Assembly (NCBI GenBank): GCA_902493595.1 | Contig: CABUPU010000004.1 | Coordinates: forward strand, 9,958 to 73,957 | Reading direction: 5' to 3' | Length of the DNA: 64,000 nt | Source of the DNA: an uncultured Mycoplasma sp. | Lineage (GTDB): Bacteria; Bacillota_I; Bacilli_A; RF39; UBA660 | Shown: one piece after another, positions 7,085-60,244 of the stretch | Layout of the letters: every line of letters starts with the position of its first letter | Numbering within the stretch: position 1 is the stretch's first letter | Program-made: the position numbers and the translations under genes | The notes under the pieces: generated by a model | Seen by the model: only the letters and a program-made list of their open reading frames with translations | Database searches by the model: none | Told to the model about the DNA's origin: nothing

Positions 7085-8560
7085 TTATTCTCCATTAATC
7101 AACAAATCTAACTTTGATACAATATTTGTAATATTATTTGTTTCTTTTTGTATTTCACTAAATAATTCTTCAATTGTAATATCATCTAAATCATCATCAT
7201 CAGTTATCCATTTTATATCTAAATTAAACTTATTATTCTTAATGTCATCATATGAAAATTTTCTCCATCTTCCATTTGGATTTTCTTCTGACCAAGTTTC
7301 AGTTCTATCATGAATATTGTCTGGATTAAAACACTTAACAAAATCGTCTAAATCTTTATTTTTTATTGGCTTTTTCTTTAAAGTAAAATGCATCCCAGCT
7401 CTTAAATCATATATCCAAACTTCTTTTGTTTGTATTTCTTTAGACGCAGGTTTATTATCAAAAAATACGACATTTGCTTTCACTCCAGGTTTATAAAATA
7501 TGCCTGTTGGCAATCTTAAAATTGTGTGTAAATTGGTTGTTTCCATTAGTTTTTTTCTAATAATCAATCCTCCTGATCCTTCTTCAAATAATACATTATC
7601 AGGTAATACAACAGCTGCTTTTCCATTAATCTTTAACAAAGTATGAATATGTTGAACAAAATTAAATTGTTTATTAGAACTTGTAGTCCAAAAATCTTGT
7701 CTATTATAAACTAAATCCTCATCTTCTTGTTCTCCATCTTCATTTGTTATTGTTAAGGATGCTTTCTTACCAAATGGAGGATTAGTTAAAACATAGTCAA
7801 ATCTTTCACCTGGATCGGATAATAACGCATCATTTCTTGTTATTGGTGATTTACCATCAATGTCACTTATATTATGCATAAATAAATTCATTAAACATAA
7901 TCTATACGTACTTTGAACTATTTCCCATCCTCTAAAGGTACTATATTTTAAGAAATTTTTATCCTTTTCATTTAAATCATAATTATCCTCAATAAACTCT
8001 TTTGATAATAATAGAAAACCACCAGAACCACAACATGGATCTACTATGGTTTTATTTGGTTCAGGTCTTATGCATCTTACCATTGCATCAATAACTGGAC
8101 GAGGTGTGAAGTATTGACCTGCTCCACTTTTTGTATCTTCTGCAATTTTTTGAAGTAATCCTTCATAAATATCACCTTTAACATCTGAAGATAATGCAGT
8201 CCATGTTTCGCCGTCGATCATAGTAATTATTTTAGATAGCATTGCAGGAGTAGATATCTTATTTATTGCTCCTGAATATATTTCCCTTAACATACCATCT
8301 TGTTCTGATAATGACTCTAAAATGCCATTATAATATTTAAATAATTCTGCACCTTTTTTTGATTTTAATTCATCCCAACTGCAATTATCAGGTAACTTAA
8401 TTCCTTTTTCAAATGGTGGTTTATTATATTCATCTATCATTTTTAAAAATAATAAATATGTTAGTTGTTCAAGATAATCTTGATTGGAAACACCATCATT
8501 CATTAGGACAGTTGCCATGCTCCATACTTTTTTATTAATTGTTGAAGTTCCCTCACTCAT
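7085..8560 (-). CDS. hsdM: Type I R-M N6-adenine DNA methyltransferase subunit
   Basis: Motif I DPCCGSGGFL, motif IV LTNPPFG, and an HsdM N-terminal-like region. Confidence 0.95.
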   Translation of the reverse strand: MSEGTSTINKKVWSMATVLMNDGVSNQDYLEQLTYLLFLKMIDEYNKPPFEKGIKLPDNCSWDELKSKKGAELFKYYNGILESLSEQDGMLREIYSGAINKISTPAMLSKIITMIDGETWTALSSDVKGDIYEGLLQKIAEDTKSGAGQYFTPRPVIDAMVRCIRPEPNKTIVDPCCGSGGFLLLSKEFIEDNYDLNEKDKNFLKYSTFRGWEIVQSTYRLCLMNLFMHNISDIDGKSPITRNDALLSDPGERFDYVLTNPPFGKKASLTITNEDGEQEDEDLVYNRQDFWTTSSNKQFNFVQHIHTLLKINGKAAVVLPDNVLFEEGSGGLIIRKKLMETTNLHTILRLPTGIFYKPGVKANVVFFDNKPASKEIQTKEVWIYDLRAGMHFTLKKKPIKNKDLDDFVKCFNPDNIHDRTETWSEENPNGRWRKFSYDDIKNNKFNLDIKWITDDDDLDDITIEELFSEIQKETNNITNIVSKLDLLINGE

Positions 8561-20388: not shown

Positions 20389-20454
20389 ACTAAATCTCTC
20401 CTTAATTAAAAAATAAAAATAATATCTTAATAAGCCATGTTCTGTACCATTACT

Positions 20455-20762
20455 GGTGACAAACATTTATCTATGTACAAAGTACATCTAGTCTTAGGTT
20501 CGTTTTCCCTTGACCAGCTCCCCTACCAAAATTTGGGTTTCTCACTCGCGGGGTTTACCACGTTCCACTTCTTTTATTTCTAAAAGACTCGTCTCTTTGG
20601 CACTTTTATACCTAATCATTTCATTTTCAGAAATTTTCGGAGCCGTTAGCATATGCTACCTTAAGTTATTTATTCCTTAAGCACGAACATATTATCCATC
20701 ACAGGATAAGTGAGCATGGACTTTCCTCAATAAAACTAAAAGTCTTACAGCGTTTGTCTAAA
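20455..20762 (-). ncRNA. rnpB: RNase P RNA (bacterial, compact Firmicutes/type B-like)
   Basis: Minus strand contains GAGGAAAGTCCATGCTC (the universally conserved CR-I/P4 strand), GTGGAACGTGGTAAACCCCGCGAGTGAGAAACCC, and ACGAACCTAAGAC (the P4 3' strand). Candidate P1 pairing is GACAAAC (20752-20758) with GTTTGTC (20458-20464). Ends are approximate. Confidence 0.85.
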
Positions 20763-20766
20763 GATA

Positions 20767-29364: not shown

Positions 29365-29452
29365 TGGTGCTTGTAATCGGGGTCGAACCGATACTTTCTT
29401 TTGGAAAAATAGATTTTGAGTCTATCGCGTCTACCAATTCCGCCATACAAGC
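29365..29452 (-). tRNA. tRNA-Leu (anticodon CAA)
   Basis: Manual cloverleaf: acceptor GCTTGTA/TACAAGC, anticodon arm ATAGA-CTCAAAA-TCTAT, long variable arm, T arm ATCGG-TTCGACC-CCGAT, encoded CCA. A terminator hairpin follows. Confidence 0.9.
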
Positions 29453-33970: not shown

Positions 33971-34906
33971 CTAACTACAAGTAAAGAATTCAGCGGTCAT
34001 TTCATAATTAATTTTAATTGGACTTACTCCTTTACTATAGTAATAAATATTATCAATTTTTGTATCACCGGCATTATAATCCATAGTTAATCTATATCTA
34101 AATCCATTAGTTATTTCAGTTACTGTTGCAGTAACACCTGACTTACCTTCAAAAGATGCTGCTAAAGTAGTGTATTCATTAAATAAGTTTGCATAATTTA
34201 CATTATCATTAGTAACTATTATAGTATCTTCATATTTAAATAACTTATCATTTTCAAAAAAATATATAATTGATTCGCCATTATTATTTTTACAAGTCAT
34301 CGCAGATTTATTTTCACTATCAACATCAAGGCTAATTAAATCATAATCACTTTCCTCGAGTTTAGCAATATTATACTTTGTTGGAGTAACACTTAACTGA
34401 TATGAAAAGTTTTTATTAGATTTATTAGTAATAATACCATTAATTTTAATTACAGAAATTTGAGAATTACTGTCATCATATAGTCTAATAAAATATGAAT
34501 CATTTGTTAAATTAAGTTCTTTATCTGCATTATTGTTAACTAAAAAACTTAGTGTTCCAGCATCAAAACTAATATTAGTAAATGTAGTTTCATTTAACTT
34601 TACTTCATTATTTGTAAATGCATAAATAGTATTTTTACTATTTTCGGTAACATTTGTTGTGGTGTTAGTCCCATTTTCAGTACCATTTGTAGTGTTATTA
34701 TTTACTACATAATTATTCGTAAAGGCTTTATTATATAAATAATCACGATATGCTTTTTGAATATCAGGTAAGAAATAAATTACCACAATAAAAATAATAA
34801 ATAAAAAAAGTGTTCCAATCCAACCATATTTTTTTGTATCAGTTCTTCCTATTGTAACTGATTGTAAAGGATTTGTATCTATATTAACTTTTCTTCTTCT
34901 AGCCAA
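33971..34906 (-). CDS. Hypothetical membrane-anchored protein (N/T-rich linker), first gene of the scpAB operon
   Basis: TTG start with AGGAGGG RBS and one N-terminal TM helix. No motif recognised. Confidence 0.6.
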   Translation of the reverse strand: MARRRKVNIDTNPLQSVTIGRTDTKKYGWIGTLFLFIIFIVVIYFLPDIQKAYRDYLYNKAFTNNYVVNNNTTNGTENGTNTTTNVTENSKNTIYAFTNNEVKLNETTFTNISFDAGTLSFLVNNNADKELNLTNDSYFIRLYDDSNSQISVIKINGIITNKSNKNFSYQLSVTPTKYNIAKLEESDYDLISLDVDSENKSAMTCKNNNGESIIYFFENDKLFKYEDTIIVTNDNVNYANLFNEYTTLAASFEGKSGVTATVTEITNGFRYRLTMDYNAGDTKIDNIYYYSKGVSPIKINYEMTAEFFTCS

Positions 34907-35028: not shown

Positions 35029-35105
35029 GGCGGGGTATATCAACTGGCTAGATAGTTCGGTTCATACCCGAAATGTTGGGGGTTCGAGTCCCTCCCCCGC
35101 TACCA
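35029..35105 (+). tRNA. tRNA-Met (anticodon CAT; elongator or Ile2-lysidine type, not initiator-like)
   Basis: Manual cloverleaf: D arm TATC/GATA, anticodon arm TTCGG-TTCATAC-CCGAA, T arm GGGGG-TTCGAGT-CCCTC, encoded CCA, and a G1-U72 wobble. Two terminator hairpins follow. Confidence 0.88.
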
Positions 35106-41751: not shown

Positions 41752-42555
41752 TTATGCATTGTTTTCATTTGATGTTAAAGTAATATTTCCAACTCCACCT
41801 TCAATAGTTAAACTAACAAGTCCTTTACCATTTTCATAATTTGAATTTATTTCTTCGCCATTAACTTTAATATTACCTATCCCTTTATTAATCTTAACTT
41901 TATAATCATTTAAACTATTAAATAAGTTAATATTAAATTCTCCTACACCAGTAGTAATTTTATTACTACCTTTGAATAAAGCAGAAATATTTGTTTTACC
42001 AGCTCCCATAGTTAAACTTAAATTATAGATATTTCCATATTCAATATCAAGACTACCTGCTCCACCTAAAACTTTAGTTTCATCTAAAACAGTAAGTCTT
42101 TTAAAATCAATTTTACCTGCTCCTTGTTTTAAATTAAGTTTTTTAGTTACAAGATTTTCAGCTTCAATTTTACCAGCACCTGTAGTAAATTCTATTTCAC
42201 TAAATTCTTTATCTCTAGGAAGATAAAGAATTAAATTACTATCTTTTGTTTCAAAAGAAACATTAATTTTTTCTTCATTGATTTTAATTACACCATTTTT
42301 ATTTTCTAACTTTACATTTTTATTATTTGTTTCTATTTTAAAGTTTTCAGCATCTTTAATAATTAAATTTGTATAAGATAAAGTTACGCTTAACTTAGAA
42401 ATATTATCATTTCCATCATAAATAACTTTATTTTCCTTTAAAAGAGCACCAGTACTAAAAAACTTTTTAAATACATTATATTTGCCTGTATAAAGTCCAT
42501 ATATAACAAATATTATTAATGCAAGAATAATTAATCTAAATAATCTTTTTATCAT
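41752..42555 (-). CDS. DUF4097/LiaG-like beta-repeat protein with N-terminal TM anchor
   Basis: Repeated GAGKI/GAGSL/GVGNI strands. Confidence 0.6.
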   Translation of the reverse strand: MIKRLFRLIILALIIFVIYGLYTGKYNVFKKFFSTGALLKENKVIYDGNDNISKLSVTLSYTNLIIKDAENFKIETNNKNVKLENKNGVIKINEEKINVSFETKDSNLILYLPRDKEFSEIEFTTGAGKIEAENLVTKKLNLKQGAGKIDFKRLTVLDETKVLGGAGSLDIEYGNIYNLSLTMGAGKTNISALFKGSNKITTGVGEFNINLFNSLNDYKVKINKGIGNIKVNGEEINSNYENGKGLVSLTIEGGVGNITLTSNENNA

Positions 42556-43232
42556 TTAACATCTACTCCACCAAAGATGCATACAGAATTTAAATATATA
42601 GTAATTTCTTTTTTACTAGATTGTTTTCCTCTTTTTACTTCAACACCTCCGAAAAATGGAGTCGAAGATACTTTAACTTTTACATCATCAGGCACATATA
42701 TATCTATTCCACCAAAAACTGATAAAGTATTTATAACAATATCTTTTTCAATTTTGGCATCTCTTAAATCAAGTTTTATTCCTCCGAAAAGTGATTTTAA
42801 ATCTAAATTCTCTACTTTTTCATCCTCAAATTTTAAATCTTGAGAACCAAATACTGCAATATAATTATTGCTTTCTTTATTATTTGCATTAATTTTTTTA
42901 ATTTCTTTGCCATTAATACTTAATACATCCTTAAATACTAATAAAAGTCCAATTGAAATTAATATAACTGGCAATAATAATTTAATTAAAAGCTCATATT
43001 CAATTAAATCTCTTTCCGCTAAAAAAAGCCAAACACCAATAATTAAAAATATTAAACTTGAGGTTTTTTCTTTATCATTTATAAGTCCTACTAAAGAAGG
43101 AATTATTATAAATAAAGTCCACCAACCAGAGAAAAATAAATTAATATTAGTAATTCCAAAAGCATTTAAACCAAGTATTAAACCAATAAAAATTAATAAA
43201 AATCCAATAATATATTTTGTATAATCTTTCAT
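42552..43232 (-). CDS. LiaF-like cell-wall stress membrane protein
   Basis: N-terminal TM helices and a C-terminal FGGIKLDL..FGGIDIYVP..FFGGVEV repeat typical of the LiaF C-terminal domain. Confidence 0.6.
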   Translation of the reverse strand: MKDYTKYIIGFLLIFIGLILGLNAFGITNINLFFSGWWTLFIIIPSLVGLINDKEKTSSLIFLIIGVWLFLAERDLIEYELLIKLLLPVILISIGLLLVFKDVLSINGKEIKKINANNKESNNYIAVFGSQDLKFEDEKVENLDLKSLFGGIKLDLRDAKIEKDIVINTLSVFGGIDIYVPDDVKVKVSSTPFFGGVEVKRGKQSSKKEITIYLNSVCIFGGVDVK

Positions 43233-43345: not shown

Positions 43346-44224
43346 TTAAAGACTCTTTATAAAATCATAGATATATGGGTATATAATTTTATATCCTTCA
43401 TAATTCAAATGAAGATTATCTGGCAAATATGTTTTTGTATTAACTTTTAAGATATTTGAATATTCTTCATTAAATAAATCTAAATATTTTATATTCCATT
43501 TATCAAGAATTTTCTTTGTCATCATAATATATTTATTATAATCATCATAACTCCATTTATGACCTCTTTCTGTATAATTTGGAGTATAATAAGTTATAAT
43601 ATATCCAATTTTTGCATCTTTAAAATATTTTTTTGCGTTATATATATATGATTCAAATCCTCCGGCAAAAGTATTTACATCAAAATCATCTTCACTCTTA
43701 CTATTTGATATTTCTCCTAAAGGTGTGTTATATAAAACATCATTAATACCACCTTGCATAATTACATAATCATATTTTTCATTTGCATGAGAAATAATTG
43801 TATCTGTAAGCCACTTATTTTTATCATCATAGGTTGATACTCTATAATCACTTATTCCAGCATTCATAACGATGTTAAAATCATAATTATCCTTTATAAA
43901 TTCTGCCCAAGAATAACCTTTAGTTAGAAAACCATAAGTTATAGAATCACCGAAAAATATAATATTTTTATTTTTAGTAACCATAGTATAAATAATTTTA
44001 TAAGATACTTCTTTATTATCGAGTTTGCAATTTATAGTATCATTATTTTTTTGACAAACGACTTTTTCATTATTCGAAGATACAATGTTATCTAAATAAT
44101 TATAATTTTCATTTTCTAAGATATGTACTTCTTTAGATTTAACATTTATAAAAGTTTCTTTTTCTTTTACATTATTACAACCACATACAACTACACATAA
44201 CATTATTAAAATAAATTTTTTCAT
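43346..44224 (-). CDS. SGNH/GDSL hydrolase lipoprotein
   Basis: Lipobox-like LCVVVCGC, block I FFGDSITYG, block V DNLHLN. Confidence 0.8.
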   Translation of the reverse strand: MKKFILIMLCVVVCGCNNVKEKETFINVKSKEVHILENENYNYLDNIVSSNNEKVVCQKNNDTINCKLDNKEVSYKIIYTMVTKNKNIIFFGDSITYGFLTKGYSWAEFIKDNYDFNIVMNAGISDYRVSTYDDKNKWLTDTIISHANEKYDYVIMQGGINDVLYNTPLGEISNSKSEDDFDVNTFAGGFESYIYNAKKYFKDAKIGYIITYYTPNYTERGHKWSYDDYNKYIMMTKKILDKWNIKYLDLFNEEYSNILKVNTKTYLPDNLHLNYEGYKIIYPYIYDFIKSL

Positions 44225-44231
44225 AAATTAC

Positions 44232-45290
44232 CTACCTTAACTTTAATATTGACATATCATCATATAAATTGTTTAAATTATATAATATTAATACATTATC
44301 AATATTTTTACTCTTTACAAAATCACTTACACTTTTATTATAATACCTTAAATCAATTACATAAATATTTTTATAATGTGATGTTAAAAAAGGAATAAAT
44401 GAATTTGCATAACTATTTTTTATAACAAGAATTGAGTTTTCATTTTCAAAATTTTCAATTTCTATTAAAGCATGATTATTATCTAAAAATATTGAATACT
44501 TATCTTTTTTATCTAAATAATCATAATTATATAAACTATTAGTTATTTTATTTTCATTAACATAATTTATAGTTAAATTTTCATTTTTTAAAAATAAATA
44601 TATATCATCACTTTTATCATAACTAAGCACTTTTGTTTGACTTGTTCCTTTAAAAGAGTTACTTACTTTAACAATATTATAATAGCTTTCGTCATTTGGA
44701 ATAACGTTTTTACTTTCCATATATTTTTTATATGCATAATATGCACCGAAACTAGTCCAGTGATGATCAGTTTTATAATACATATTTGTTTTTTTATTAT
44801 GATTTTTTAAAGTATCTATTACATTTATATTATTTGAATATTTTAAACTACTATATAAATAATTTATATCAATTTCTTCATTTGTGTTAATACTTCTTTT
44901 TAGTTTATCACTATTAATATAAATAGAATCAGGTACTATCATAACATCTGTTTGAATATTTTTAGCAAAATCATTTATTGTTTCTATTATTAAACTACTT
45001 TTTTTGATTTCAACTTTTTCTGGCAATAAATAATAATCATTTGCAACATAAACTCCATTTACAAGGGTTTTACCACATAATAATTCAATTTTATTTTTTA
45101 GTTTTAAAAGTTTATTTCTAAATGGTGCATTATCAAGTAAATAACTCTCTACATTGTTTAAACTAAATTTTGTTAAATATCTATTTTCAAATTCTGAATA
45201 GCTTTCCTTTTTTTTAAATATAAACATAACTGAATAAATAAAAATCATAATACTTATTATTAAAAATATAATTTTATTTCTTTTTTTCAT
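44232..45290 (-). CDS. DHHW-family protein (AlgJ/AlgX-like acyl-transfer partner of MBOAT)
   Basis: N-terminal TM helix and YKTDHHWTSFGAYYAY. Confidence 0.72.
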   Translation of the reverse strand: MKKRNKIIFLIISIMIFIYSVMFIFKKKESYSEFENRYLTKFSLNNVESYLLDNAPFRNKLLKLKNKIELLCGKTLVNGVYVANDYYLLPEKVEIKKSSLIIETINDFAKNIQTDVMIVPDSIYINSDKLKRSINTNEEIDINYLYSSLKYSNNINVIDTLKNHNKKTNMYYKTDHHWTSFGAYYAYKKYMESKNVIPNDESYYNIVKVSNSFKGTSQTKVLSYDKSDDIYLFLKNENLTINYVNENKITNSLYNYDYLDKKDKYSIFLDNNHALIEIENFENENSILVIKNSYANSFIPFLTSHYKNIYVIDLRYYNKSVSDFVKSKNIDNVLILYNLNNLYDDMSILKLR

Positions 45291-45300
45291 AAACTACCCC

Positions 45301-46614
45301 TTAAAAACTATTATATAAAAATGGTTTAAATGAACCAGATAAAATAAATGAAACTGTAATTATAAATAAACAAACATAAATAATTATTATTACTATATTT
45401 ATAAATTTGTTATTAGAAATTTTATTTTTTATACTTTCTGGAAGTTTTAAAATCATAAGTAAACTTAATATGATTAAAAATAAATTATCCCTTAAATAAA
45501 AGATTACTTCATTATTATAAAGGTTACCTTTAAACATGTTTGATATAAATAAACTTATATCATTTAAACTATTTTGAGTAAATAATATATAACCAAATAA
45601 AACAATAATTATTACATACAAATGCTTAAATATTTTAGGGAGTTTTTCTAAAAAATTATTTAAAACAAACTTTTCTAAAACTATTATTATTCCATAGTAT
45701 AATCCCCATAATAAAAAATTAATTGTATTTCCGTGCCAAATGCCCGTTAAAAGCCAAACTACCATAAGATTTCTTATTGTTATGAGTTTATTTTTCTTAC
45801 TTCCTCCTAAAGGGAAATAAACATACTCTTTAAAAAAATTTGAAAGTGATATATGCCATTTACGCCAAAAAGAAGATATACTATTTGCTAAATATGGATT
45901 ATCAAAATTTTCCTCTAAAGAAATACCACACATTTTACCAAGTCCTAGTGCCATATTTGTATAACCTAAAAAATCAAAATATAAATATAATGCATAAATA
46001 ATTAAAACAAACAAACATGATAAAAATGTTTTATTAGTTATACTATTAAAAGTGTTATATAAAATACTTAAATTATTTGCAAGTAATACCTTTTGAAATA
46101 AACCCGTTAAAAATCTATAAAAGCCTTTTGCTCCTATTTCAAAAGAAATATCTAAATTCCTTATATTTTTTGTTACTTCATTAAACCTTGTAATTGGTCC
46201 CATTAAAACATTACAAAATAATGTAATATAACATAAATAATCTAAAAAACTTTCATTTTTAATTTTATTATGTTTTCTATCAAGTATGTAACTAATATTA
46301 TTAAAAGTATAAAAACTTATCCCTAAAGGAAATATAAAATAGTTTGTATATTTAAAAAAACTTAAAAATAATATATTAATTATTACCAAAACATTATATG
46401 ATCTTTGATATTTTTTCCCTAATAGCTTAATATAAAAATAATTAAATAAAATGGTAAAAATTAATAAACAAAAATTAAATATTCCACTGTAAAGATAAAA
46501 TATTAAATTAAATATTATAAGAACAATATATCTTTTTGACTTTGGAAGTAAAATAAATAATAAATAAAAAATTGGTAAAAAAAAGAAAATAAATAATAAA
46601 CTACTAAAATTCAT
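45301..46614 (-). CDS. MBOAT-family O-acyltransferase (AlgI/DltB-like)
   Basis: Polytopic, with FWRKWHISLSNFFKEYVYFPLGG and TGIWHG histidines. Confidence 0.9.
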   Translation of the reverse strand: MNFSSLLFIFFFLPIFYLLFILLPKSKRYIVLIIFNLIFYLYSGIFNFCLLIFTILFNYFYIKLLGKKYQRSYNVLVIINILFLSFFKYTNYFIFPLGISFYTFNNISYILDRKHNKIKNESFLDYLCYITLFCNVLMGPITRFNEVTKNIRNLDISFEIGAKGFYRFLTGLFQKVLLANNLSILYNTFNSITNKTFLSCLFVLIIYALYLYFDFLGYTNMALGLGKMCGISLEENFDNPYLANSISSFWRKWHISLSNFFKEYVYFPLGGSKKNKLITIRNLMVVWLLTGIWHGNTINFLLWGLYYGIIIVLEKFVLNNFLEKLPKIFKHLYVIIIVLFGYILFTQNSLNDISLFISNMFKGNLYNNEVIFYLRDNLFLIILSLLMILKLPESIKNKISNNKFINIVIIIIYVCLFIITVSFILSGSFKPFLYNSF

Positions 46615-47060
46615 TAATTTATATATTCCTTTACTACATTATACATTTCTTCATTATTTTCAGATACTATATATATTAAATAATCACCTACTGATGTTGC
46701 AAGTTTATTTTTAATTAAATTAACAGCCTCTGGTGAATATAAACTACTTTGATTTTCTAATATAGAAAACATTTCATCCATATTATTTTTAACTTTTTCT
46801 TTGTTTTCAGATTTTACTTTAATTAAAGCATAAAAATTACCATCTTGATTTTCACTTGACTTAATAATATATTCTTCCATTAAAGTTATATCTTGATTAT
46901 AAATACCCTCAAGTTCTTTTTCACTCATAAGAGCCATATTTTGATATTTTTCATCAAGGGAGGTTGATGCTCCTTTCATATCAAGTGTTGATGCACTTTT
47001 GTTACAACCAGCTAAAATAATTGCAAGCCCTATAACCATTATAATTTTTTTTAATTTCAT
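46614..47060 (-). CDS. Small lipoprotein (DUF4358-like, from memory)
   Basis: Signal peptide plus lipobox LAGC. Stop/start overlap with the MBOAT gene. Confidence 0.5.
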   Translation of the reverse strand: MKLKKIIMVIGLAIILAGCNKSASTLDMKGASTSLDEKYQNMALMSEKELEGIYNQDITLMEEYIIKSSENQDGNFYALIKVKSENKEKVKNNMDEMFSILENQSSLYSPEAVNLIKNKLATSVGDYLIYIVSENNEEMYNVVKEYIN

Positions 47061-47061
47061 A

Positions 47062-48315
47062 TTAATTTACCACCTTTCCTAAATCTAAATGTTTTATGTA
47101 GTCTATATATTTATTTCTTCCTTCTTCATTTAAATGAAAATTGCAATTAAGTTCATCAGTACATTCAAATAAACTTACATCAGCATAACCTTCATTATCC
47201 TTTATTTCATTTGTAAAATCAATAAAATTTATATTATTTTCATAACAAAATCTTGCTAAATAATAATTTAAAATATTAATATTTTTTTGACTTGCTTTAT
47301 TTAGTGTACCATCATTTATTGGAAATATTGCTGAAAATATAATTTTTGTATCTTTATAATTTAACTTAATATTATCATAAAATTTTTGAAGTTCTCTTAC
47401 AAATACATCTTTTTGCATATAAAGTCCAGCATTAATTCCAGGACATACAATTAAATATTTTGGTTTATATTTTGTAAGAGCATCATTTAAAACTGTATTT
47501 TGTCTATTTTCATAAGTTTCAAAAGTCGAAGAATTCATTTGAGCAATGTTTAAGTTATTTCTTGCCCAAGTTTGATAAGCCGAAATATGTTTTCCTTTTT
47601 GATACAAAAATGATGTATTTGAGTCTCCTAAAAAGATAGTATCATTAAAATAATTATATTCATTTTCTTCATAAGTTAAAGTCGTTTTAGTAAATAGTCC
47701 TTTTAAAGTAAAATCTTTTATCGAACTTGTTAATGCACTATCATCAAGAACTTCAACAGTTCTTACAACTTTTGCTTTATTTTTAGAACTATCTATGGCC
47801 TCATACACAACCTCATACTTGCCTGCTTTGGTTTCATCAATATTATTTGTTACTTTAATTTTGCTATTAATATCTTTATCATAGTTATCAGTTATTTCAT
47901 AACCAGGTTCTTCATATTTACTATCTTTATTAAGATATATTATATTATCACCATTTAATGTTATTACAGGTTTTTCAATATCAACTACATGAATATTTCT
48001 AATAACACTTTTTTTAAAATTTAATAAGTTTGCTGTATATGTAACTTTATAATCTCCTAAAGAGGTATTATCAATATTATTTTTTACATCAACTTTTAAC
48101 TTTTTACCAAAAAATGTTGCTTTATAACCATTTTCAAAATAAGGACTATTTACATTTAAATAAATGTCTTTATCTCCGATTAAAATAATATTAAAAAGAA
48201 AATTCATACTAAAAAAAGTAACTAAAAATATAGCTATAATTATAAGTAAAAATTTATATTTTGTTTTTAATTTTAACTTCTTTTTCTTCATAACTACCCT
48301 ATAAAATAATACCAT
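47062..48315 (-). CDS. Membrane-anchored Ig-like repeat plus SGNH-type esterase protein
   Basis: Two DUF5011-like repeats (..PGYEITDNYD.., ..KAGKYEVVYEAIDSSKN), FLGDSNT and NFHLNEEG. The start could be M9 (48291). Confidence 0.62.
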   Translation of the reverse strand: MVLFYRVVMKKKKLKLKTKYKFLLIIIAIFLVTFFSMNFLFNIILIGDKDIYLNVNSPYFENGYKATFFGKKLKVDVKNNIDNTSLGDYKVTYTANLLNFKKSVIRNIHVVDIEKPVITLNGDNIIYLNKDSKYEEPGYEITDNYDKDINSKIKVTNNIDETKAGKYEVVYEAIDSSKNKAKVVRTVEVLDDSALTSSIKDFTLKGLFTKTTLTYEENEYNYFNDTIFLGDSNTSFLYQKGKHISAYQTWARNNLNIAQMNSSTFETYENRQNTVLNDALTKYKPKYLIVCPGINAGLYMQKDVFVRELQKFYDNIKLNYKDTKIIFSAIFPINDGTLNKASQKNINILNYYLARFCYENNINFIDFTNEIKDNEGYADVSLFECTDELNCNFHLNEEGRNKYIDYIKHLDLGKVVN

Positions 48316-48334: not shown

Positions 48335-49189
48335 TTATTTTGAGTTTAAATATTCATTTAATTTATCTTTTATATTATTATAATCTTTTATTCCAATATC
48401 ATATATTCTATCTATTTCTTTTTTATTTACTTTATTAAGACTTATATCAATATTTTCTGAGGGATATATAGCAAATATTTTATTTTCACTACTTAATTTA
48501 TCAATTATTTCTAATGATTCATTATACTGTTTATATCTATTAAGCATTGCTTTAATAAATTTAGGATATTTCTTATACTTAGTTTTTATTCCTATAATTT
48601 CTCCTTTATTAAATGGTTTTTTAATAAAACCTTTTTCCCTTGTTAAAATAACAATAATTCTATCATATTCTAAAGATAAAGCTTTTTTAATTGGAATGCT
48701 ATCACATATTGCTCCATCTAAATAATAATTATTATTAATTTCTACAATATTTGTTAAAAAAGGCATTGCACTACTTGCTCTTAATACTTCAATCTGATTA
48801 TAAACATTATTTACTTCAATATATTCAGGTAGACCAGTTTCAACATTCGATACTGTTGCTAAAAGAAGTTTGTAATTTTTTTCATATTCTTTTTCATCAA
48901 ATACTTCAATATTTTTAGTAACATTATAATAAGCAAAATCTTTATTAACAAAATTACCAGTTTCAATTAATGATTTTTTACCCATATATCTTGAATCTTT
49001 ACAATATTTTCTATTAATATTTAAACATCTTCCTATTTGCCTAGAATAATAATTTGGAGCTATTAAAGCACCTGCAGAAACACCAATTATTGCATCTATA
49101 TTAATATTATCTTCGATAAATTTATCTATTATTGCAGCAGTATATGTACCCCTAAAAGCACCACCCTCTAAAACTAAAAGTGTTTTCAT
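48335..49189 (-). CDS. Patatin-like phospholipase
   Basis: GGAFRG oxyanion motif, GVSAGA nucleophile elbow, and the DGA catalytic Asp motif. Confidence 0.85.
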   Translation of the reverse strand: MKTLLVLEGGAFRGTYTAAIIDKFIEDNINIDAIIGVSAGALIAPNYYSRQIGRCLNINRKYCKDSRYMGKKSLIETGNFVNKDFAYYNVTKNIEVFDEKEYEKNYKLLLATVSNVETGLPEYIEVNNVYNQIEVLRASSAMPFLTNIVEINNNYYLDGAICDSIPIKKALSLEYDRIIVILTREKGFIKKPFNKGEIIGIKTKYKKYPKFIKAMLNRYKQYNESLEIIDKLSSENKIFAIYPSENIDISLNKVNKKEIDRIYDIGIKDYNNIKDKLNEYLNSK

Positions 49190-49337
49190 GTATCCTCCTT
49201 TTCAAAATAATTATATCTTCTTTTTTATTAAAAGTATATATACTTTAGATTAATAATTAATATATCAATAATCTTTTTTACCATTTTTGTGTATTTACAC
49301 ACTTTTGGTAAATTGGTATTCATAATAATTTTATTCT

Positions 49338-49447
49338 AAAAAAATGCGGCCTGTAAAAAGGCCGCTCAGGGGGTTTTGGTTTGACTATTCCTCACATTAT
49401 AATTCGTAAGGTTTTAGTCAGGCATAGGTTTTTATTTGTCCTATGCT
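49338..49447 (-). ncRNA. Candidate small RNA C (C-rich single-stranded seed, family unknown)
   Basis: Own promoter at 49454-49482. Contains hairpins CAUAGG..CCUAUG and CCUUAC..GUGAGG, the unpaired segment AAUAGUCAAACCAAAACCCCCUGA, and the terminator GCGGCC-uuuuuaca-GGCCGC followed by a U-run. Paralogous to 51616-51705. Ends are approximate. Confidence 0.45.
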
Positions 49448-49453
49448 AATTAA

Positions 49454-49482
49454 ATGATAATATGATTTTTTAAAAAAGTCAA
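49454..49482 (-). promoter_or_regulatory. Promoter of sRNA candidate C
   Basis: TTGACT - 17 nt - TATCAT, preceded by AGTGTAAAG (present twice). Confidence 0.5.
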
Positions 49483-49518
49483 TTATTTTCTTTACACTTT
49501 ACTAATGCTTTACACTTT

Positions 49519-51492
49519 TTAATCTGTGATGTTTAAATTTTGAGCTAAGTCTTTATAATATTCATTATTTAAATATTCTTTACTATCAATAAATTTTTTT
49601 GCATCTTCATTAGCAAATAGTAAAATATTATAATCATTTTTTAAATTAGCAAGTTTAAATGACATATCTCCATGTTGTTTAACACCAAATAAATCTCCAT
49701 GACCACGCATTTCAAAATCTTTTTGAGATATATAGAAACCATCATTACTTTCCTCCATTACTTTAAGACGATCATTATCACTATCACTAATTAAATAGCA
49801 ATAACTTTGTAAATCACTTCTTCCTACTCTTCCTCTTAACTGATGAAGTGTTGCAAGTCCAAATCTTTCAGCATTAAATATTACCATCATGGTAGCATTA
49901 GAAACATCTATACCTACTTCAATAACGGTGGTTGCTATTAATATTTTAATCTGATTATTTTTAAAATCATTCATGATACTTTCTTTTTCACTAGTTTTCA
50001 TTTTTCCATGAATTATTTCAATTCTAAATAAATTTTTAAATGCAAGTGATAGTTTTTCCTTTAACAAATTTATACTTGTTAAATTTAATGATTCATCCTC
50101 TTCGACTAAAGGAGACACTACATATATTTGATGGCCTAATTTTATTTGTTCAAGCATAAGTCCAAGCACCTCTTTAATATCACTATTTTTCTTAACCTTT
50201 GTAATAATATCTTTTCTACCAGTTGGTTTAGTTTTAATATATGAAATATCTAAATCACCATAAATAGTCATTGCATAAGTTCTAGGAATAGGTGTTGCTG
50301 ATAAATATAAAATATCAGGGCATTTTGATTTATCTTCCAAAGTAAATCTTTGATGTACTCCAAAACGGTGTTGTTCATCTGTTATAACAAGTCCTAAATT
50401 ATTAAATATAATATTTTCATTTAATAATGAATGTGTTCCAATTAATAAATCTATTTCTTTATTTTGTACCCTTTTATAAATTGCTTCTTTTTCTTTTTTA
50501 GACATTGAACCAGTTATTAACTCAACAGCTACATTAAATTTATCAAGTATTTTTTTAATACTAAAATAGTGTTGAGTAGCAAGTACTTCAGTTGGAGCCA
50601 TTAAAGTAGATTCAAATCCAGCAATAAAATTAGCATAGATTGCTCCCACGGCTACAACAGTTTTACCACTTCCAACATCTCCTAAAAGAAGTCTATTCAT
50701 TTTTTTATTTGAACTCATATCTTGAACAATTTCACTATAAGCATTATCTTGATCAGTAGTTAAAGAAAATGGTAATAATTTTTTAAATTCATTTATTTTA
50801 TTTATATCAATATTTTTAGGTTCTTTATCTTTTCTAATATTTTGATTTTTAAAATAATTCATTTTAAATGAAAAATCAAATAATTCTTCATAAATTAATC
50901 TATTTTTAGCATAATGAACCATTTTTAAATCATTTGCAAAATGAATATTATATAATGCATCTTTTTTAGATAATAAATTATATTTTGAAATAATATTACT
51001 TGGTAAAGAATCTTTAATATATATATTATTAAAATTATCTTTTATTAATTTAGAAACTGTATTATTAGTTATTCCTTTTGTTAAATGATATACTGGTTCT
51101 ATTTGACCATTAGTTACATTAAATTTTATATCCGAAGATGTAAATATATTTTTCTTAAAATCATATTTACCAATAATAGTTATATTTTTTCCAATAGTTA
51201 AATTTGTTTTTAAATAAGCTCTATTAAATATTACTACATTAAAAATTCTTTCATTATACCTTGCTCTAAATGATAATCTATTAAAATTTTTTTTAATATA
51301 TGAAACAATTGGATTAGATTCAATAATTACATTTATTATTAAGGTAGAATTATCTATTAATTTATTTGAAAAATTATAAACATTATATCTATATGGATAA
51401 TAATTTATTAAATCATCATCTGTAAATATTCCTAGTTTATTTAATATTTTTGAAGTTTTTTCACCCACCTGGTGTAAATTTTTTATGTCCAT
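49519..51492 (-). CDS. recG: ATP-dependent DNA helicase RecG
   Basis: Wedge/OB N-terminus, GDVGSGKT, DEQHRFGV, QLRGRVGR. Confidence 0.92.
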   Translation of the reverse strand: MDIKNLHQVGEKTSKILNKLGIFTDDDLINYYPYRYNVYNFSNKLIDNSTLIINVIIESNPIVSYIKKNFNRLSFRARYNERIFNVVIFNRAYLKTNLTIGKNITIIGKYDFKKNIFTSSDIKFNVTNGQIEPVYHLTKGITNNTVSKLIKDNFNNIYIKDSLPSNIISKYNLLSKKDALYNIHFANDLKMVHYAKNRLIYEELFDFSFKMNYFKNQNIRKDKEPKNIDINKINEFKKLLPFSLTTDQDNAYSEIVQDMSSNKKMNRLLLGDVGSGKTVVAVGAIYANFIAGFESTLMAPTEVLATQHYFSIKKILDKFNVAVELITGSMSKKEKEAIYKRVQNKEIDLLIGTHSLLNENIIFNNLGLVITDEQHRFGVHQRFTLEDKSKCPDILYLSATPIPRTYAMTIYGDLDISYIKTKPTGRKDIITKVKKNSDIKEVLGLMLEQIKLGHQIYVVSPLVEEDESLNLTSINLLKEKLSLAFKNLFRIEIIHGKMKTSEKESIMNDFKNNQIKILIATTVIEVGIDVSNATMMVIFNAERFGLATLHQLRGRVGRSDLQSYCYLISDSDNDRLKVMEESNDGFYISQKDFEMRGHGDLFGVKQHGDMSFKLANLKNDYNILLFANEDAKKFIDSKEYLNNEYYKDLAQNLNITD

Positions 51493-51580
51493 TTTACCTC
51501 CAACCTAATTGTATCAAACTTTATAAAAAAAGCAAATATAAAGTTTTTTAAAAAAATATGTAAAATGAGTGTAAAGTTAA

Positions 51581-51609
51581 TTGACTTTTTATCATATATG
51601 CTTTAGTAT
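51581..51609 (+). promoter_or_regulatory. Promoter of sRNA candidate D
   Basis: TTGACT - 17 nt - TAGTAT, preceded by GAGTGTAAAG. Homologous to the promoter at 49454-49500 on the opposite strand. Confidence 0.5.
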
Positions 51610-51615
51610 ATTAAT

Positions 51616-51705
51616 TACCAAATCACTTAAGAAGGCGATTTGGTGCTAGTATCACACTAGTCAACCCCTTTTTATTCTTTGAGGCCCTAAAGGCCTCGTT
51701 TTTTT
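51616..51705 (+). ncRNA. Candidate small RNA D (paralogue of C)
   Basis: Hairpins ACCAAAUC..GAUUUGGU and CUAGU-aucac-ACUAG, the unpaired segment CAACCCCUUUUUAUUCUUU, and the terminator GAGGCC-cuaa-AGGCCUC followed by a U-run, convergent with the PFOR stop. Ends are approximate. Confidence 0.45.
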
Positions 51706-51720
51706 ATGAAAAAAAGAATA

Positions 51721-54700
51721 CTAATCAGTACTCTTTATTTTATTATAATAATTATATCTTTCTTTAGCATTATTAATTTGTATATTAAGAAGTTTATTTG
51801 CTAAAGAATTATCTTTTATTTTTAAAGCATTATATCTTACTTCATTATTTAAAAATTCTTCATACTTATCAAAATTAGGTTCTTTTGAATCAAGATATAG
51901 TTTATTATCTTTATATCTCATTAAAAGTGTATAACCACACTCTACTGCAAGTTTTTCTTCGTTAATTGAGTTACACATTCCACCCTTGATACCATGTTCT
52001 ATACAAGGACAATAACATATTACAATTGAGGGACCATTATGATTTTCTGCTTCAGTTAATGTTTTAATTGCTTGAACATTATTGGCTCCCAAACAAATTG
52101 ATCCAACATATACATTAGGGGCGCACATAGCAATTTTGAATAAATCTTTTTTACTAGTTTTCTTACCAAAATCTGCAAATTCAGCAACAGCACCAACTTT
52201 AGTTGATTTACTTGCTTGTCCTCCAGTATTTGAATAAACCTCTGTATCAAGAACTAAAATATTAATATTTTCATTTGAATGAAGAATATGATCTATTCCA
52301 TTATATCCTATATCATAAGCCCAACCATCACCACCAATAGCCCAAACACTTTTTTTAGGTATATATTCTTTTAAATCATATAATTCTTTTGGTAAAGTTA
52401 AATCATCCATATTTTTTACAAAATTATTTGTAATTTCATAATTATCAAAATTTAAAAGTAAATTTAAACAAGCATCTTTTTCTTTTTCAGAATAAGAATT
52501 AATAGAGTTAGAAATAATATTTTTTATTCTATTTCTTTTTTGCTTATATGATGTATAAATACCATAAGCAAATTCTGCATTATCTTCGAAAAGTGAATTT
52601 GCCCAAGGAACTAAATATGGTGTTGATGGAAAACTACCTCCGTAAATACTTGAACATCCTGTAGCATTAGCAATAACTAATTTTTCTCCAACAATTTGAG
52701 TTAATAATTTAATATATGGAGTTTCCCCACAACCAGCACAAGCGCCAGAAAATTCAAATAAAGGTTTTGTTAATGATATTCCTTTTATAGTGTTTTTTGG
52801 ATATAATGATGGATTTTCATATGTATTAAATAATTCATCCGTTGGAATAACATTTGTTTCTAAAGTAAGAGCTTTAGTAGGACAAACTCCTACGCATAAA
52901 CCACATCCAGTACAATCTTTATTACTAATACCTACAAAATAATTATATTCATCATTTCCTAAAAGAGGTTTACCAAGTGATTTATCTTTAGTAATAAATG
53001 GTCTTATTACACTATGAGGACAAACTATATTACATGCTCCACATTCAATACATTTATCTATATTCCATTTTGGAGTAAGCATAGAAACATCTCTTTTTTC
53101 ATATTTAGATAGTCCACATTTAACTCCACCATTACTAAACATTTTAACTTCACTTGTAGAAAGGTTTTCTCCTTTTCTATTATTTATTAAAGTATAAATA
53201 TCTTTTTCTTCATTTTCCTCTTTTGCAAAACTATCTATTATTTTTACATCTTTTATTTCATTTAATGATGCATTTATAGCATTAATATTATTATTAACAA
53301 CATCTTCACCTTTAGTCATAAAGGCCTTTTTAACGGAATTAACAACCATTTCTTTAGCATTTGGTACATTTAATAGATTAAGTATATTTACTTCCATAAT
53401 TTTGCTTATTTTGCCATTTAAATGATTTTCATAAGCAATCCTTTGTGCATTAATTATTTTTACATTTATATTTTTAGATATAATTTCTTTTTTTATAGAA
53501 CTACTTAAATAATCATTTAATTCTTTTTCATTTTTAATAGTATTTATTAAAAGGATTCCATTATCTTTTATACCAGAAAGCATATCATATCTTTCAAAGT
53601 AAACATCCTTTGTTACAACCACTAAAGTAGGACTAGTTACATAAAAAGGTGCATTAATACTATTATCTCCCATTCTTAAATGAGATATAGTTACTCCACC
53701 ACTTTTTTTAGAATCATATTCAAAATAACCTTCAACATATTTTCCTAAACTTTCATGTAATAATGTAAGCATATTTTTCGAGGCACTTACCATTCCATCT
53801 GAACCAAAACCATATATTTTAAATTCTTCATAATTATTAGATAATTTATAATCAGTTTTTGGTAAACTTAAATGAGTTAAATCATCATTTATACCAATTG
53901 TAAAACTATTTTGAGGTTTACTTTCTAAACTATCATAAACACTTTTTATATCACTAGGACTAGTATTTTTACTAGATAGTCCATATCTTCCTCCGACAAT
54001 CTCAATATTTTTATCTTTTAACGAAGATAATACATCTAAATAAAGTGGTTCACCAATACTTCCAGCTTCTTTAGTCCTATCTAATACAGCAATTTTTTGT
54101 ACGCTTTTAGGAAGTACTTGCTCTAAATATTTTTTACTAAATGGTCTATATAAATGAACCTCAATTAAGCCATAATCATTATTACCATTTTTTATTTCAT
54201 TATCAATTACAAGTTTAATAGTGTCATTTACACTACCCATTGCAATAATTATATATTTAGCATTATCACTTCCATAGTAATTAAATGGTTTATAACTAGT
54301 TCCCATTATTTCATTAATGTTAGTCATATATTCATTAACAATATCTGGCATTTTATCATATAATTCATTTCTACTTTCAGTTATTTGAAAATATACATCC
54401 TCAGTTTGACTTGTTCCATAATTTAAATCTGAAAGTAATGCTCTTTTCTTAAAACTTTCTAAAGCATTTTTATCTACTAAAGGAAGTAGTTTTTCTTCGG
54501 GTAATTCTTTTATTGTATTAAGTTCATGACTTGTTCTAAAACCATCAAAAAAGTGTATAAAAGGAAGACTTCCCTTTATCGCAGACAAATGTGCTACTGC
54601 CGCAAGGTTTTGAGCATCATAAACATTACTACTTGCAAGCATGCAGCATCCTGTCATTCTCGCAGAATATATATCACTATGATCACCAAATATTGAAAGA

Positions 54701-55047
54701 GCATGTGTTGCAATACTTCTAGCAGCAACATGAATTACTCCAGGAAGACATTCACCCGCTATTTTATATAAATTTGGAATCATTAATAGTAATCCTTGAC
54801 TTGCTGTATAAGTAGATGCTAAACTTCCAGATAATAATGCTCCATGAAGTGCACCAGCCGCTCCAAGTTCTGATTCCATTTCTACCACAGTAGGTTTATC
54901 ATTAAATATATTTTTTTTATCAGTATGCGTTAAATAATCAATATTTTCAGCCATCGGTGAGGATGGTGTAATTGGATATATTGAACATATCTCACTAAAC
55001 AAATATGCTACACTACTACACGCTTTATTTCCATCAACTATTTTCAT
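51721..55047 (-). CDS. nifJ: Pyruvate:ferredoxin (flavodoxin) oxidoreductase
   Basis: 1108 aa single-chain PFOR. Ferredoxin-like motifs CIECGACNIVCP and CTGCGLCVGVCP; TPP motif GGDGWAYDIG. Confidence 0.9.
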   Translation of the reverse strand: MKIVDGNKACSSVAYLFSEICSIYPITPSSPMAENIDYLTHTDKKNIFNDKPTVVEMESELGAAGALHGALLSGSLASTYTASQGLLLMIPNLYKIAGECLPGVIHVAARSIATHALSIFGDHSDIYSARMTGCCMLASSNVYDAQNLAAVAHLSAIKGSLPFIHFFDGFRTSHELNTIKELPEEKLLPLVDKNALESFKKRALLSDLNYGTSQTEDVYFQITESRNELYDKMPDIVNEYMTNINEIMGTSYKPFNYYGSDNAKYIIIAMGSVNDTIKLVIDNEIKNGNNDYGLIEVHLYRPFSKKYLEQVLPKSVQKIAVLDRTKEAGSIGEPLYLDVLSSLKDKNIEIVGGRYGLSSKNTSPSDIKSVYDSLESKPQNSFTIGINDDLTHLSLPKTDYKLSNNYEEFKIYGFGSDGMVSASKNMLTLLHESLGKYVEGYFEYDSKKSGGVTISHLRMGDNSINAPFYVTSPTLVVVTKDVYFERYDMLSGIKDNGILLINTIKNEKELNDYLSSSIKKEIISKNINVKIINAQRIAYENHLNGKISKIMEVNILNLLNVPNAKEMVVNSVKKAFMTKGEDVVNNNINAINASLNEIKDVKIIDSFAKEENEEKDIYTLINNRKGENLSTSEVKMFSNGGVKCGLSKYEKRDVSMLTPKWNIDKCIECGACNIVCPHSVIRPFITKDKSLGKPLLGNDEYNYFVGISNKDCTGCGLCVGVCPTKALTLETNVIPTDELFNTYENPSLYPKNTIKGISLTKPLFEFSGACAGCGETPYIKLLTQIVGEKLVIANATGCSSIYGGSFPSTPYLVPWANSLFEDNAEFAYGIYTSYKQKRNRIKNIISNSINSYSEKEKDACLNLLLNFDNYEITNNFVKNMDDLTLPKELYDLKEYIPKKSVWAIGGDGWAYDIGYNGIDHILHSNENINILVLDTEVYSNTGGQASKSTKVGAVAEFADFGKKTSKKDLFKIAMCAPNVYVGSICLGANNVQAIKTLTEAENHNGPSIVICYCPCIEHGIKGGMCNSINEEKLAVECGYTLLMRYKDNKLYLDSKEPNFDKYEEFLNNEVRYNALKIKDNSLANKLLNIQINNAKERYNYYNKIKSTD

Positions 55048-59674: not shown

Positions 59675-60244
59675 TTAGTACCATTTTTGTAATTCGGGGT
59701 TTTCCCTATTTAATACTAATTTTTTTCCTTCCATTTTTGATGATTCATAGTACACATCACAAATACAGTCAAACTTTAACTCGTTATTACTACGACTTAT
59801 TTTAACACCTCTTTTTTGAAACTCATTATATATTTTTCTTAAATTAAAACCAACAAATTTGTTTAAAACTTCTTCCCATATATTATTTTTATATAAAATA
59901 CTTCCTCTTACATCATGTTCTAAAGAATATTCCTTGTTAAGAATAGAAAAAAATCTTGTTTTATCATTTTGTAAATTTGTAATTTTTAAAACATTATCAA
60001 TCCCTTTAAAAGTTGATAAATATTTAATTCTATATACCTTTGGAATAGGATTTCCAGCATTTTTATAAAACCATTTTTGTAATTGCTTTATGTTATCAAA
60101 AAATAATGGGCTTTTTTTATAAGTACTTGTATGTGCTGGAATATAAACATCACTATTTATTTCATCACTATAATAATACTCACCACCATCGTAAGATATT
60201 TCATAAGGAACAATATATAATAGTTCTATATCATTTTCATTCAT
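59675..60244 (-). CDS. Hypothetical 189-aa protein
   Basis: ORF bracketed by the duplicated terminator/promoter module. No motif recognised. Confidence 0.6.
   Translation of the reverse strand: MNENDIELLYIVPYEISYDGGEYYYSDEINSDVYIPAHTSTYKKSPLFFDNIKQLQKWFYKNAGNPIPKVYRIKYLSTFKGIDNVLKITNLQNDKTRFFSILNKEYSLEHDVRGSILYKNNIWEEVLNKFVGFNLRKIYNEFQKRGVKISRSNNELKFDCICDVYYESSKMEGKKLVLNRENPELQKWY

Follow-up and report, generated by a model that had tools for sequence, protein, structure and literature searches.

The question raised by the flanks of recG in an uncultured, gut-dwelling Mycoplasma sp. (GTDB lineage RF39; UBA660) is whether two short cytosine-rich elements, one on either side of the gene and pointing away from it, are small-RNA (sRNA) genes in their own right and, if so, what they do. 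The DNA analysed, referred to below as the window, is a stretch of 64,000 nucleotides (assembly GCA_902493595.1, contig CABUPU010000004.1, positions 9,958 to 73,957), in which recG occupies 49519-51492 on the minus strand, a gene call that was confirmed as RecG; the left element lies at 49338..49448 (-) and the right one at 51616..51705 (+). A preliminary description, made from the letters alone, had proposed two paralogous sRNAs with homologous promoters. As far as sequence comparison can establish it, both elements are confirmed as genuine conserved sRNA genes that are uncatalogued in Rfam; the proposal of free-standing genes holds, as each has its own promoter and terminator and both recur, conserved, in metagenomes and in a dozen or so related species, and from these features we infer that both are actually transcribed. 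On a joint reading, to which a probability of roughly 0.55 is assigned, they would be two trans-acting sRNAs that act by anti-Shine-Dalgarno pairing and are probably controlled by a response regulator of the OmpR family.

Relatives were gathered by a RecG-based scan with one genome per species, which yielded 15 loci with RecG identities from 34% to 100%; L-numbers (L001, L021, L054 and so on) serve below as labels for the compared loci of relatives and metagenomes. The left RNA, of about 110 nt, is predicted to start at 49448/49447 and to end with a U-run at 49338. The covariance model R1 matches it over 49338-49448 at 145.8 bits, and orthologues were found in 11 other GTDB loci in addition to metagenome loci. 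Its promoter (49454..49482, -) consists of the -35 hexamer TTGACT (49482-49477), a 17-nt spacer and the -10 hexamer TATCAT (49459-49454), and both hexamers and their spacing are kept in all orthologues. The 5' hairpin H1, GCAUAGG/CCUAUGC (49422..49446, -), is paired in 100% of alignment cells, with compensatory changes at three of its seven pairs (AU to GC; GC to AU, CG or UA). It is followed by a second hairpin (49382..49420, -) composed of P2, UGACUA/UAGUCA, and P3, CCUUACG/UGUGAGG, which are paired in 93.5% and 94.4% of cells, likewise with compensatory changes; the loop is the conserved ACGAAUUAUAAUGUG, G-U pairs in this hairpin set the strand, and in L018, L019, L021 and L054 P2 and P3 are fused into a single long helix of different sequence. 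The preliminary description had seen two 6-bp hairpins here and had taken AAUAGUC to be unpaired; both statements have to be corrected, as the RNA has a 7-bp 5' hairpin and a composite second hairpin of 6+7 bp (13 bp), AAUAGUC is part of the second stem, and the unpaired stretch is the C-rich AACCAAAACCCCCUGA (49366..49381, -). This putative seed is unpaired in both the minimum-free-energy and the consensus structures, and within it CAACCAAAACCCCCU is invariant in every lineage, the sole exception being the window clade with one added A. The RNA ends at an intrinsic terminator, GCGGCCU..AGGCCGC plus seven U (49338..49365, stem 49365-49346), in which all seven stem pairs covary between species, and the predicted RNA folds more stably than its shuffled versions (z = -6.9).

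The right RNA is about 90 nt long. Its promoter (51581..51609, +) has the -35 hexamer TTGACT (51581-51586), a 17-nt spacer and the -10 hexamer TAGTAT (51604-51609); the hexamers are conserved, and in nine lineages ATTGACTTTT and TA(G/A)TAT are invariant and the spacer is variable. Under the covariance model R2, the stretch 51616-51707 scores 114.8 bits and the orthologues score 68-118 bits. Hairpin H1 (51617..51644, +) is paired in 98.8% of cells with two compensatory pairs (AU to UA; CG to AU or UA), and hairpin H2, GCUAGU AUCAC ACUAGU (51645..51661, +), is paired in 100% of cells and invariant in sequence apart from a G-U to G-C change in two sequences. The C/U-rich stretch CAACCCCUUUUUAUUCUU (51662..51679, +), a putative seed, is unpaired in the folds and invariant in 15/15 distinct sequences. 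In the intrinsic terminator, GAGGCC..GGCCUC plus seven U (51680..51705, stem 51680-51698), four of the six pairs covary, the stem varying in sequence and length between species with its pairing preserved. Compared with shuffled versions, the predicted RNA has a folding z of -4.4.

The conservation of these parts is uneven, and the pattern bears on what is being conserved. Both RNAs occupy the same recG-flanking positions down to a RecG identity of 54% (L021) and are absent from the two most distant of the 15 loci. Gut metagenomes contributed 26 right copies, 19 left copies and 3 divergent right copies; the pattern used for that scan, shared promoter plus 5' end, is restrictive and misses paralogues that differ in either. 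The first 66 nt of the right RNA, comprising both hairpins and the unpaired stretch, are identical where recG DNA is only 71-74% identical (RecG protein 63-70%); variation is confined to the terminator stem, plus H1 in L021 and three metagenome lineages, with pairing kept. In this RNA 99.4% of cells are paired, and 6 of the 23 pairs are changed on both sides, mostly in the terminator. The left RNA has an overall identity of 52-82% across relatives, and here 96.7% of cells are paired, compared with 27-40% when the partners are slid by 1-3 columns; 13 of the 27 pairs are changed on both sides, and none of 500 shuffles attains the observed values. The alignments were fitted to covariance models, which somewhat favours structure; the slid controls of both RNAs, which pair far less (27-48%), nevertheless speak against an artefact. 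Compensatory changes can also be read from the raw left sequences, in which GCAUAGG/CCUAUGC becomes GCAUGAU/AUCAUGC, and GACUA/UAGUC becomes GACCA/UGGUC or GAUCU/AGAUC. Covariation in the recG flanks of relatives supports the hairpins. What does not vary in either RNA is the segment left unpaired after the second hairpin and before the terminator, CAACC(AAAA)CCCCCU on the left and CAACCCCUUUUUAUUCUUU on the right. Each RNA is on the strand proposed at the outset, which is fixed by G-U pairs (A-C on the opposite strand), by one-sided U-runs and by promoters at constant distance, and the opposite strands of both elements fold less exceptionally.

Could the RNAs be coding? In the right RNA the frame GUG-CUA-GUA-UCA-CAC-UAG begins 7 nt after a Shine-Dalgarno-like AAGAAGG, and short AUG frames occur in the left RNA. 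That they encode tiny peptides is hardly credible, since from one species to another the left frames change their length (3, 9 or 19 codons) and their phase, and in the right RNA the 'ORF' is unchanged even where, in L035, L038 and L054, the Shine-Dalgarno-like loop has gone. As all third-codon positions are invariant, the constraint on the right RNA acts at the RNA rather than the coding level; open reading frames (ORFs) of at least 40 aa have zero overlap with either RNA. The loop in question, UUAAGAAGG in H1 (51626-51636), is also complementary to the right RNA's own CCUUUUUA seed (51666-51673), so that masking of the seed or a pseudoknot is conceivable; it is this sequence that is altered, and its Shine-Dalgarno-like character not kept, in L035, L038 and L054.

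A simpler view is that these are passive transcript ends, the left element being a structured 3' untranslated region (UTR) and terminator of recG and the right one a terminator or insulator that separates the pyruvate:ferredoxin oxidoreductase (PFOR) gene from recG, neither having a transcript of its own. The left RNA does stand directly after the recG stop, and the right one does lie between two genes. A terminator scan of 49100-51900 returned exactly two sites (0.6 expected), both as had been described, each about 90-110 nt downstream of its promoter; between the recG stop (49519) and the left-RNA terminator it found none. The left RNA follows recG in the direction of transcription, and its terminator is the only one at the disposal of recG, so that it also makes up the 3' end of recG. 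All the elements listed in the preliminary description were located at their places. Passive ends are nevertheless very unlikely: the -35 and -10 hexamers of both elements are conserved with correct spacing and distance; the invariant parts are the unpaired stretches and the terminator stems vary freely; and the right U-run belongs to the plus strand, whereas PFOR and recG are on the minus strand. PFOR moreover has its own terminator outside the right RNA (51709..51733, -), a hairpin with the PFOR stop codon in it and seven U behind it, which stands back-to-back with the right-RNA terminator, and an equivalent second hairpin is present in other species. The earlier argument that the right RNA cannot be a leader stands on this arrangement.

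Further evidence against both passive ends and leaders comes from the neighbours, which change while the RNAs persist. In strains of the same species with identical RecG (L001 and L002, at 5155-5170), the sequences are collinear to 13 nt past the left terminator and then lose all similarity; what follows the left RNA is a patatin gene in the window, an Abi_2 abortive-infection-type gene in another strain and other genes elsewhere. The 3' end of the left RNA (window 49325-49338) is thereby a strain-variable boundary, as tRNA genes are. Upstream of the right RNA, PFOR, RmuC or inserted ORFans are found according to species: in L054 the right RNA adjoins RmuC instead of PFOR, and in L024 two ORFans stand between recG and the right RNA, which retains its promoter and upstream boxes. 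In addition, L054 has the left RNA twice, at 25-128 and 1190-1293 (-), each with about 45 nt of promoter, on either side of a 296-aa ORFan without Pfam match. This tandem left copy is the sole extra one, as no additional copies of R1 or R2 were found in the 64-kb window or in most loci. In L013, a metagenome-assembled genome with 86% RecG identity, the right RNA is missing (2730-3000); the sequence upstream of its recG, TTACATAAAGTTAATAGAATATTT, looks like a decayed right promoter. Cis-acting leaders, that is a riboswitch or attenuator of the patatin gene on the left and of the following ORF in some lineages on the right, have in their favour a same-strand ORF 20-30 nt past the terminator in L016 and L054. 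The chance that this explains the elements is slight: the downstream gene varies by strain and species, the right RNA of the window runs into the end of PFOR, neither an alternative anti-terminator fold nor a match to an Rfam leader exists, and the downstream ORF of L054 has its own extended -10. Because both RNAs persist as neighbours change, neither is a leader nor merely the terminator of another gene, and the duplication of the left RNA together with its promoter points the same way.

Whether the RNAs belong to a described family was examined with Rfam 15, at the gathering threshold for the whole window and with E <= 10 for a 2.6-kb part and for either RNA by itself, and no family matched either of them. 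The best sub-threshold scores, for ncr1241 (19.8 bits, threshold 60), sRNA71 (16.5) and LhrC (15.9, threshold 110), are noise, and a search of the literature brought up nothing on the seed sequences or on 'CAG-472'. The earlier remark that no RNA family could be named for them has therefore survived the search.

The relation between the two RNAs is a separate matter, and here promoters and bodies behave differently. The two window promoters have AGTGTAAAG and TAATTGACTTTTT in common, and their likeness was reached by only 3/1000 shuffles and by 20/12,696 genomic windows (0.16%), so that the proposed promoter likeness exceeds chance by both measures. The RNA bodies, on local alignment, are no more alike than shuffles, 187 of 1000 of which do as well; under the right-RNA model the left RNA receives 11.9 bits (E ~1.6), and the left-RNA model misses the right RNA entirely. 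What the bodies share is the layout, a 5' UA(G/C)CA and, where hairpin 2 has its foot, (A/G)(U/C)CAACC with a C-run after it; the sequence similarity between the two sides is limited to some 26 nt of promoter. A third member of the family was sought by the metagenome scan, which returned only left and right types and some 22 unrelated chance promoters. The two RNAs may have a common origin, for which the evidence is weak, and the term 'paralogous' goes beyond what the bodies allow. The 'TTAATTA start region', also said to be shared, is indeed present in the window and is specific to this species.

In L021, the remotest of the lineages with both RNAs, the promoters have undergone a joint change: both (about 2862-2935 and 4990-5037) carry TTGACAAAATAAT in place of TTGACTTTTT, and both are without TGTAAA boxes. 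Such lineage-specific matching fits either co-regulation or sequence exchange between the loci. It could also be read as gene conversion between DNA-level recombination or integration sites, that is, inverted repeats around recG, for which the loss of strain collinearity 13 nt past the left terminator and the duplication of the left RNA around an ORFan in L054 would also speak. The fold itself is under selection as RNA, however, as shown by G-U pairs, one-sided U-runs and compensatory changes, and with no integrase found near the duplicated or variable regions and left-right similarity limited to the stretch of promoter, such sites are a far-fetched account of the elements; a role as integration hot-spot would be secondary, as with tRNA genes.

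The evidence for a regulator lies directly upstream of the promoters. In the window, AGTGTAAAG boxes are present at 49516-49508 and 49498-49490 (-) on the left and at 51568-51576 (+) on the right, and the 64 kb contain only two cases of GTGTAAAG no more than 25 nt from TTGAC, those of these two promoters, where 0.04 are expected. Further AGTGTAAAG sites at 1284 and 32013 are intragenic and were set aside as chance matches. At the right promoter the direct repeat TGTAAA-N5-TGTAAA (51559..51575, +) is a candidate response-regulator site that ends 5 nt before the -35 hexamer. It is conserved in 19/22 promoter variants, with boxes 11 bp apart (N5), or 10 bp apart (N4) in two of these, L024 and L050; its boxes equal the -35 and -10 hexamers in conservation and the intervening spacers vary, as can be seen in the footprint from nine lineages, tGTAAAt...gTGTAAAt..aATTGACTTTT.........Tg..TTAgTATA.tAA.TACCA. 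Judged by sequence, the geometry of this repeat is that of an OmpR-family response-regulator site, and the repeat is an exact match to the WalR consensus of B. subtilis, TGTWAH-N5-TGTWAH (PMC9210968). The left promoter has TGTAAA (49514-49509, at -32) and AGTAAA (49503-49498, at -21), 11 bp apart (49498..49514, -), and [T/A]GTAAA is found at -21 to -23 in nearly all lineages; a third box, TGTAAA at 49496-49491 (at -14), is unconstrained, as it is mutated in the same-species strains L001 and L008. The upstream box described earlier as shared is consequently upheld for its conserved TGTAAA core only, of which the left promoter has a partial version. A WalR-like triple site in L027 is antisense inside a coding sequence and was dismissed as chance.

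Taken together, the elements are best explained as follows. Two independently transcribed trans-acting sRNAs, confined to one clade of gut Bacilli that are uncultured and very rich in AT ('Mycoplasma sp. CAG:472' and relatives), would each be made from their own sigma-70-type promoter, with a start 1-2 nt before a protective 5' hairpin, and would each end at their own intrinsic terminator, before which an invariant pyrimidine-rich stretch would be exposed. The segments CAACC(AAAA)CCCCCU (left) and CAACCCCUUUUUAUUC (right) would serve as seeds for ribosome-binding sites, pairing with purine-rich Shine-Dalgarno regions and thereby blocking translation initiation. It has been reported that C-rich unpaired motifs bind Shine-Dalgarno sequences in RsaE/RoxS, LhrC, RNAIII, SprD and FsrA (PMC4409812, PMC4132741). 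A response regulator of the OmpR family would probably act on the TGTAAA direct repeats, phased by 10-11 bp and abutting the -35 hexamer, its site being present in full at the right promoter and only in part at the left one. The left RNA in addition forms the 3' end of the recG transcript. We infer the base-pairing mechanism, the targets and the regulator from these signals, and several observations pull the other way. As to the regulator, the WalR-type motif has 3 matches in the window against 1.7 expected, which is not significant in AT-rich DNA; the left site of the window species, TGTAAA-N5-AGTAAA, is one mismatch off, and elsewhere a single box is left; only one box is present in L035, L038 and L054, and L021 lacks it altogether; and none of the ten window proteins of response-regulator size that were scanned has a receiver domain. 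As to the targets, a duplex scan of 53 translation-initiation regions gave no convincing target for either RNA. The best left candidate is an ORFan at 59675-60244 (-), which follows the EF-Tu gene (tuf); the sequence around its start, GGUUUUGGUAUG, forms 9 bp with ACCAAAACC of the left RNA. Being strain-specific (one protein cluster, 4 contigs), the gene is a lead only. The best right candidate is a conserved membrane protein without Pfam match, encoded at 33971-34906 (-) between an RNase J gene and scpA, upstream of scpA, whose purine-rich 5' UTR GAAGAGUAGGAGGG is complementary to the right seed. The predicted duplex reaches -17.4/-17.8 kcal/mol in two close species and only -9 to -12 in 48-55%-identical orthologues (L082-L086 compared), and because complementarity falls while the seed stays invariant, this gene too is a lead only. 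Finally, no position varies over 66 nt of the right RNA, a stretch that contains a stem free of covariation, and this constraint is above that of a simple seed. Searches of the window for complements of the seeds matched the RNAs themselves only.

Since the invariance of the right RNA exceeds what a seed needs, a protein partner or several interaction surfaces are a live alternative. The RNAs, the right one especially, might be protein-binding or housekeeping RNAs, with H2 and the pyrimidine tract as a surface for a chaperone, an RNase or a translational regulator; the 66-nt body that is identical across RecG proteins of 63-70% identity, the H2 stem without covariation, the free drift of the left-RNA stems by contrast and the empty target searches all favour this. 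It is weakened by the absence of repeated motifs such as GGA and of any match to 6S, SRP, tmRNA, Y RNA or another Rfam family, and by the dispensability of the right RNA in at least one related genome (L013). A divergent lineage moreover loses the H1 loop and retains the pyrimidine tract, a pattern that fits a seed. A protein-binding role is accordingly regarded as improbable, though worth keeping in mind for the right RNA. The reading as trans-acting anti-Shine-Dalgarno sRNAs can also be carried further, in that the pair might be the output of a WalR-like, OmpR-family envelope-sensing system, a third independent module of sibling C-rich sRNAs and response regulator beside csRNA/CiaRH and LhrC/LisRK, with promoter gene conversion between the inverted copies and an extra partner for the right RNA; this extension is tentative, and we consider it rather doubtful as a whole.

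The window has a GC content of about 25%. Public proteins identical or nearly so to its RecG come from gut assemblies of humans and animals and are labelled 'uncultured Bacilli bacterium' or 'Mycoplasma sp. CAG:472'. recG, PFOR (51721-55047, a confirmed gene call) and the patatin-like gene (48335-49189) are all on the minus strand. Just downstream of the patatin gene, at 43346-48315 (-), follow two GDSL/SGNH lipase-like genes and DHHW, MBOAT O-acyltransferase and DUF4358 genes, which look like a module for the acylation of surface polymers. At 41752-43232 (-) the genes of a DUF4097 'toastrack' protein and a LiaF-like membrane protein are neighbours, without a histidine kinase or response regulator beside them. 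The Rfam search of the window also returned a class-B RNase P RNA at 20426-20765 (-) with 261.9 bits. In addition, the window has two tRNA genes (29368-29452, -; 35029-35102, +) and a type I restriction-modification methylase, HsdM (7085-8560, -).

Almost nothing is known of post-transcriptional regulation in the uncultured, genome-reduced Bacilli that abound in human and animal guts, and few non-coding sequences near recG are as conserved in their clade as these two RNAs. With clear promoters, terminators and seeds they provide entry points for a new Rfam family or pair of families, for comparative target prediction and for the regulator of the TGTAAA repeats; if that regulator should be WalR-like, essential cell-envelope signalling would be linked to sRNA control. 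The finding is useful rather than surprising, because C-rich anti-Shine-Dalgarno sRNAs are established in low-GC Gram-positive bacteria.

Known systems resemble the pair in different respects. Type I 3'-UTR-derived sRNAs of enterobacteria, such as DapZ and MicL, have their own promoter at the end of the upstream coding sequence and share the terminator of the mRNA. The left RNA is similar in having its own promoter at the recG end and a shared terminator, but its promoter lies just past the stop codon instead of inside the coding sequence, and the host is of the Gram-positive type. The promoters of the WalR (YycF/VicR) regulon are resembled by the right one through its repeat, which fits the consensus and is conserved across lineages; the left promoter, however, is off-consensus, the right spacing is N4 in L024 and L050, and the motif count is at chance level. 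To our knowledge, no WalR-dependent sRNA has been described.

RsaE/RoxS (RF01820) of Staphylococcus and Bacillus is alike in length (about 100 nt), in its 5' hairpin, in unpaired C-runs before an intrinsic terminator and in its low-GC Bacilli hosts. Its transcription also depends on Rex, and its targets belong to central metabolism. CCCCUUUUUA of the right RNA agrees with the RoxS repeat CCCCUUUGUU at 8/10 positions, and transcription of RoxS/RsaE is activated by ResD/SrrA of the OmpR family (PMC4409812). The RsaE model nevertheless has no match, either at the gathering threshold on the window or at E <= 10 on the 2.6 kb and on the 111-nt and 131-nt stretches. RsaE/RoxS has three or four C-rich regions including a duplicated CCCCUUUGUU (PMC4409812), whereas here there is a single CCCC on the right and a single CCCCC plus CC on the left, without internal repeat. 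The upstream box differs as well, since here it abuts the -35 hexamer and is another sequence, and in RsaE/RoxS it is near -65.

The LhrC1-5 sRNAs of Listeria monocytogenes (RF00616) are multicopy, about 110 nt long and transcribed from similar promoters, and theirs is the nearest Rfam model for the left RNA. They are controlled by the LisRK envelope-stress two-component system and bind G-rich ribosome-binding sites through unpaired UCCC motifs, which are located in loop A, the single-stranded linker and the terminator loop (PMC4132741). The score of the left RNA, 15.9 bits, falls far below the threshold of 110 (E = 2.9), and the right RNA has no match. Unlike in LhrC, the C-run is here in the linker only, the loops being ACAAAUAAAAA, AAUUAUAA and UUUUAC and the terminator loops varying between species; there are two copies (three in L054) as against five.

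The CiaR-dependent csRNAs of Streptococcus are sibling sRNAs with a stem-loop, an unpaired stretch and a terminator, and their promoters likewise have direct repeats of hexamers separated by N5. It has been reported that the csRNA repeat, NTTAAG-N5-TTTAAG, lies 10 bp upstream of the -10 hexamer and is served by an OmpR-family regulator, that locations and copy numbers of the csRNAs vary, and that the unpaired region between their two stem-loops carries anti-Shine-Dalgarno and anti-start-codon (CAU) sequences (PMC3091779). Here the repeat is TGTAAA and precedes a canonical -35, and the sequences are not similar; the pyrimidine-rich unpaired region is at the equivalent place, and neither linker contains CAU. 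RsaE/RoxS, LhrC and the csRNAs are the closest functional analogues, although neither the RsaE/RoxS and LhrC models nor the csRNA repeat match the two RNAs. LhrC and the csRNAs are the best parallels among them, because they combine sibling sRNAs, matching promoters and two-component control.

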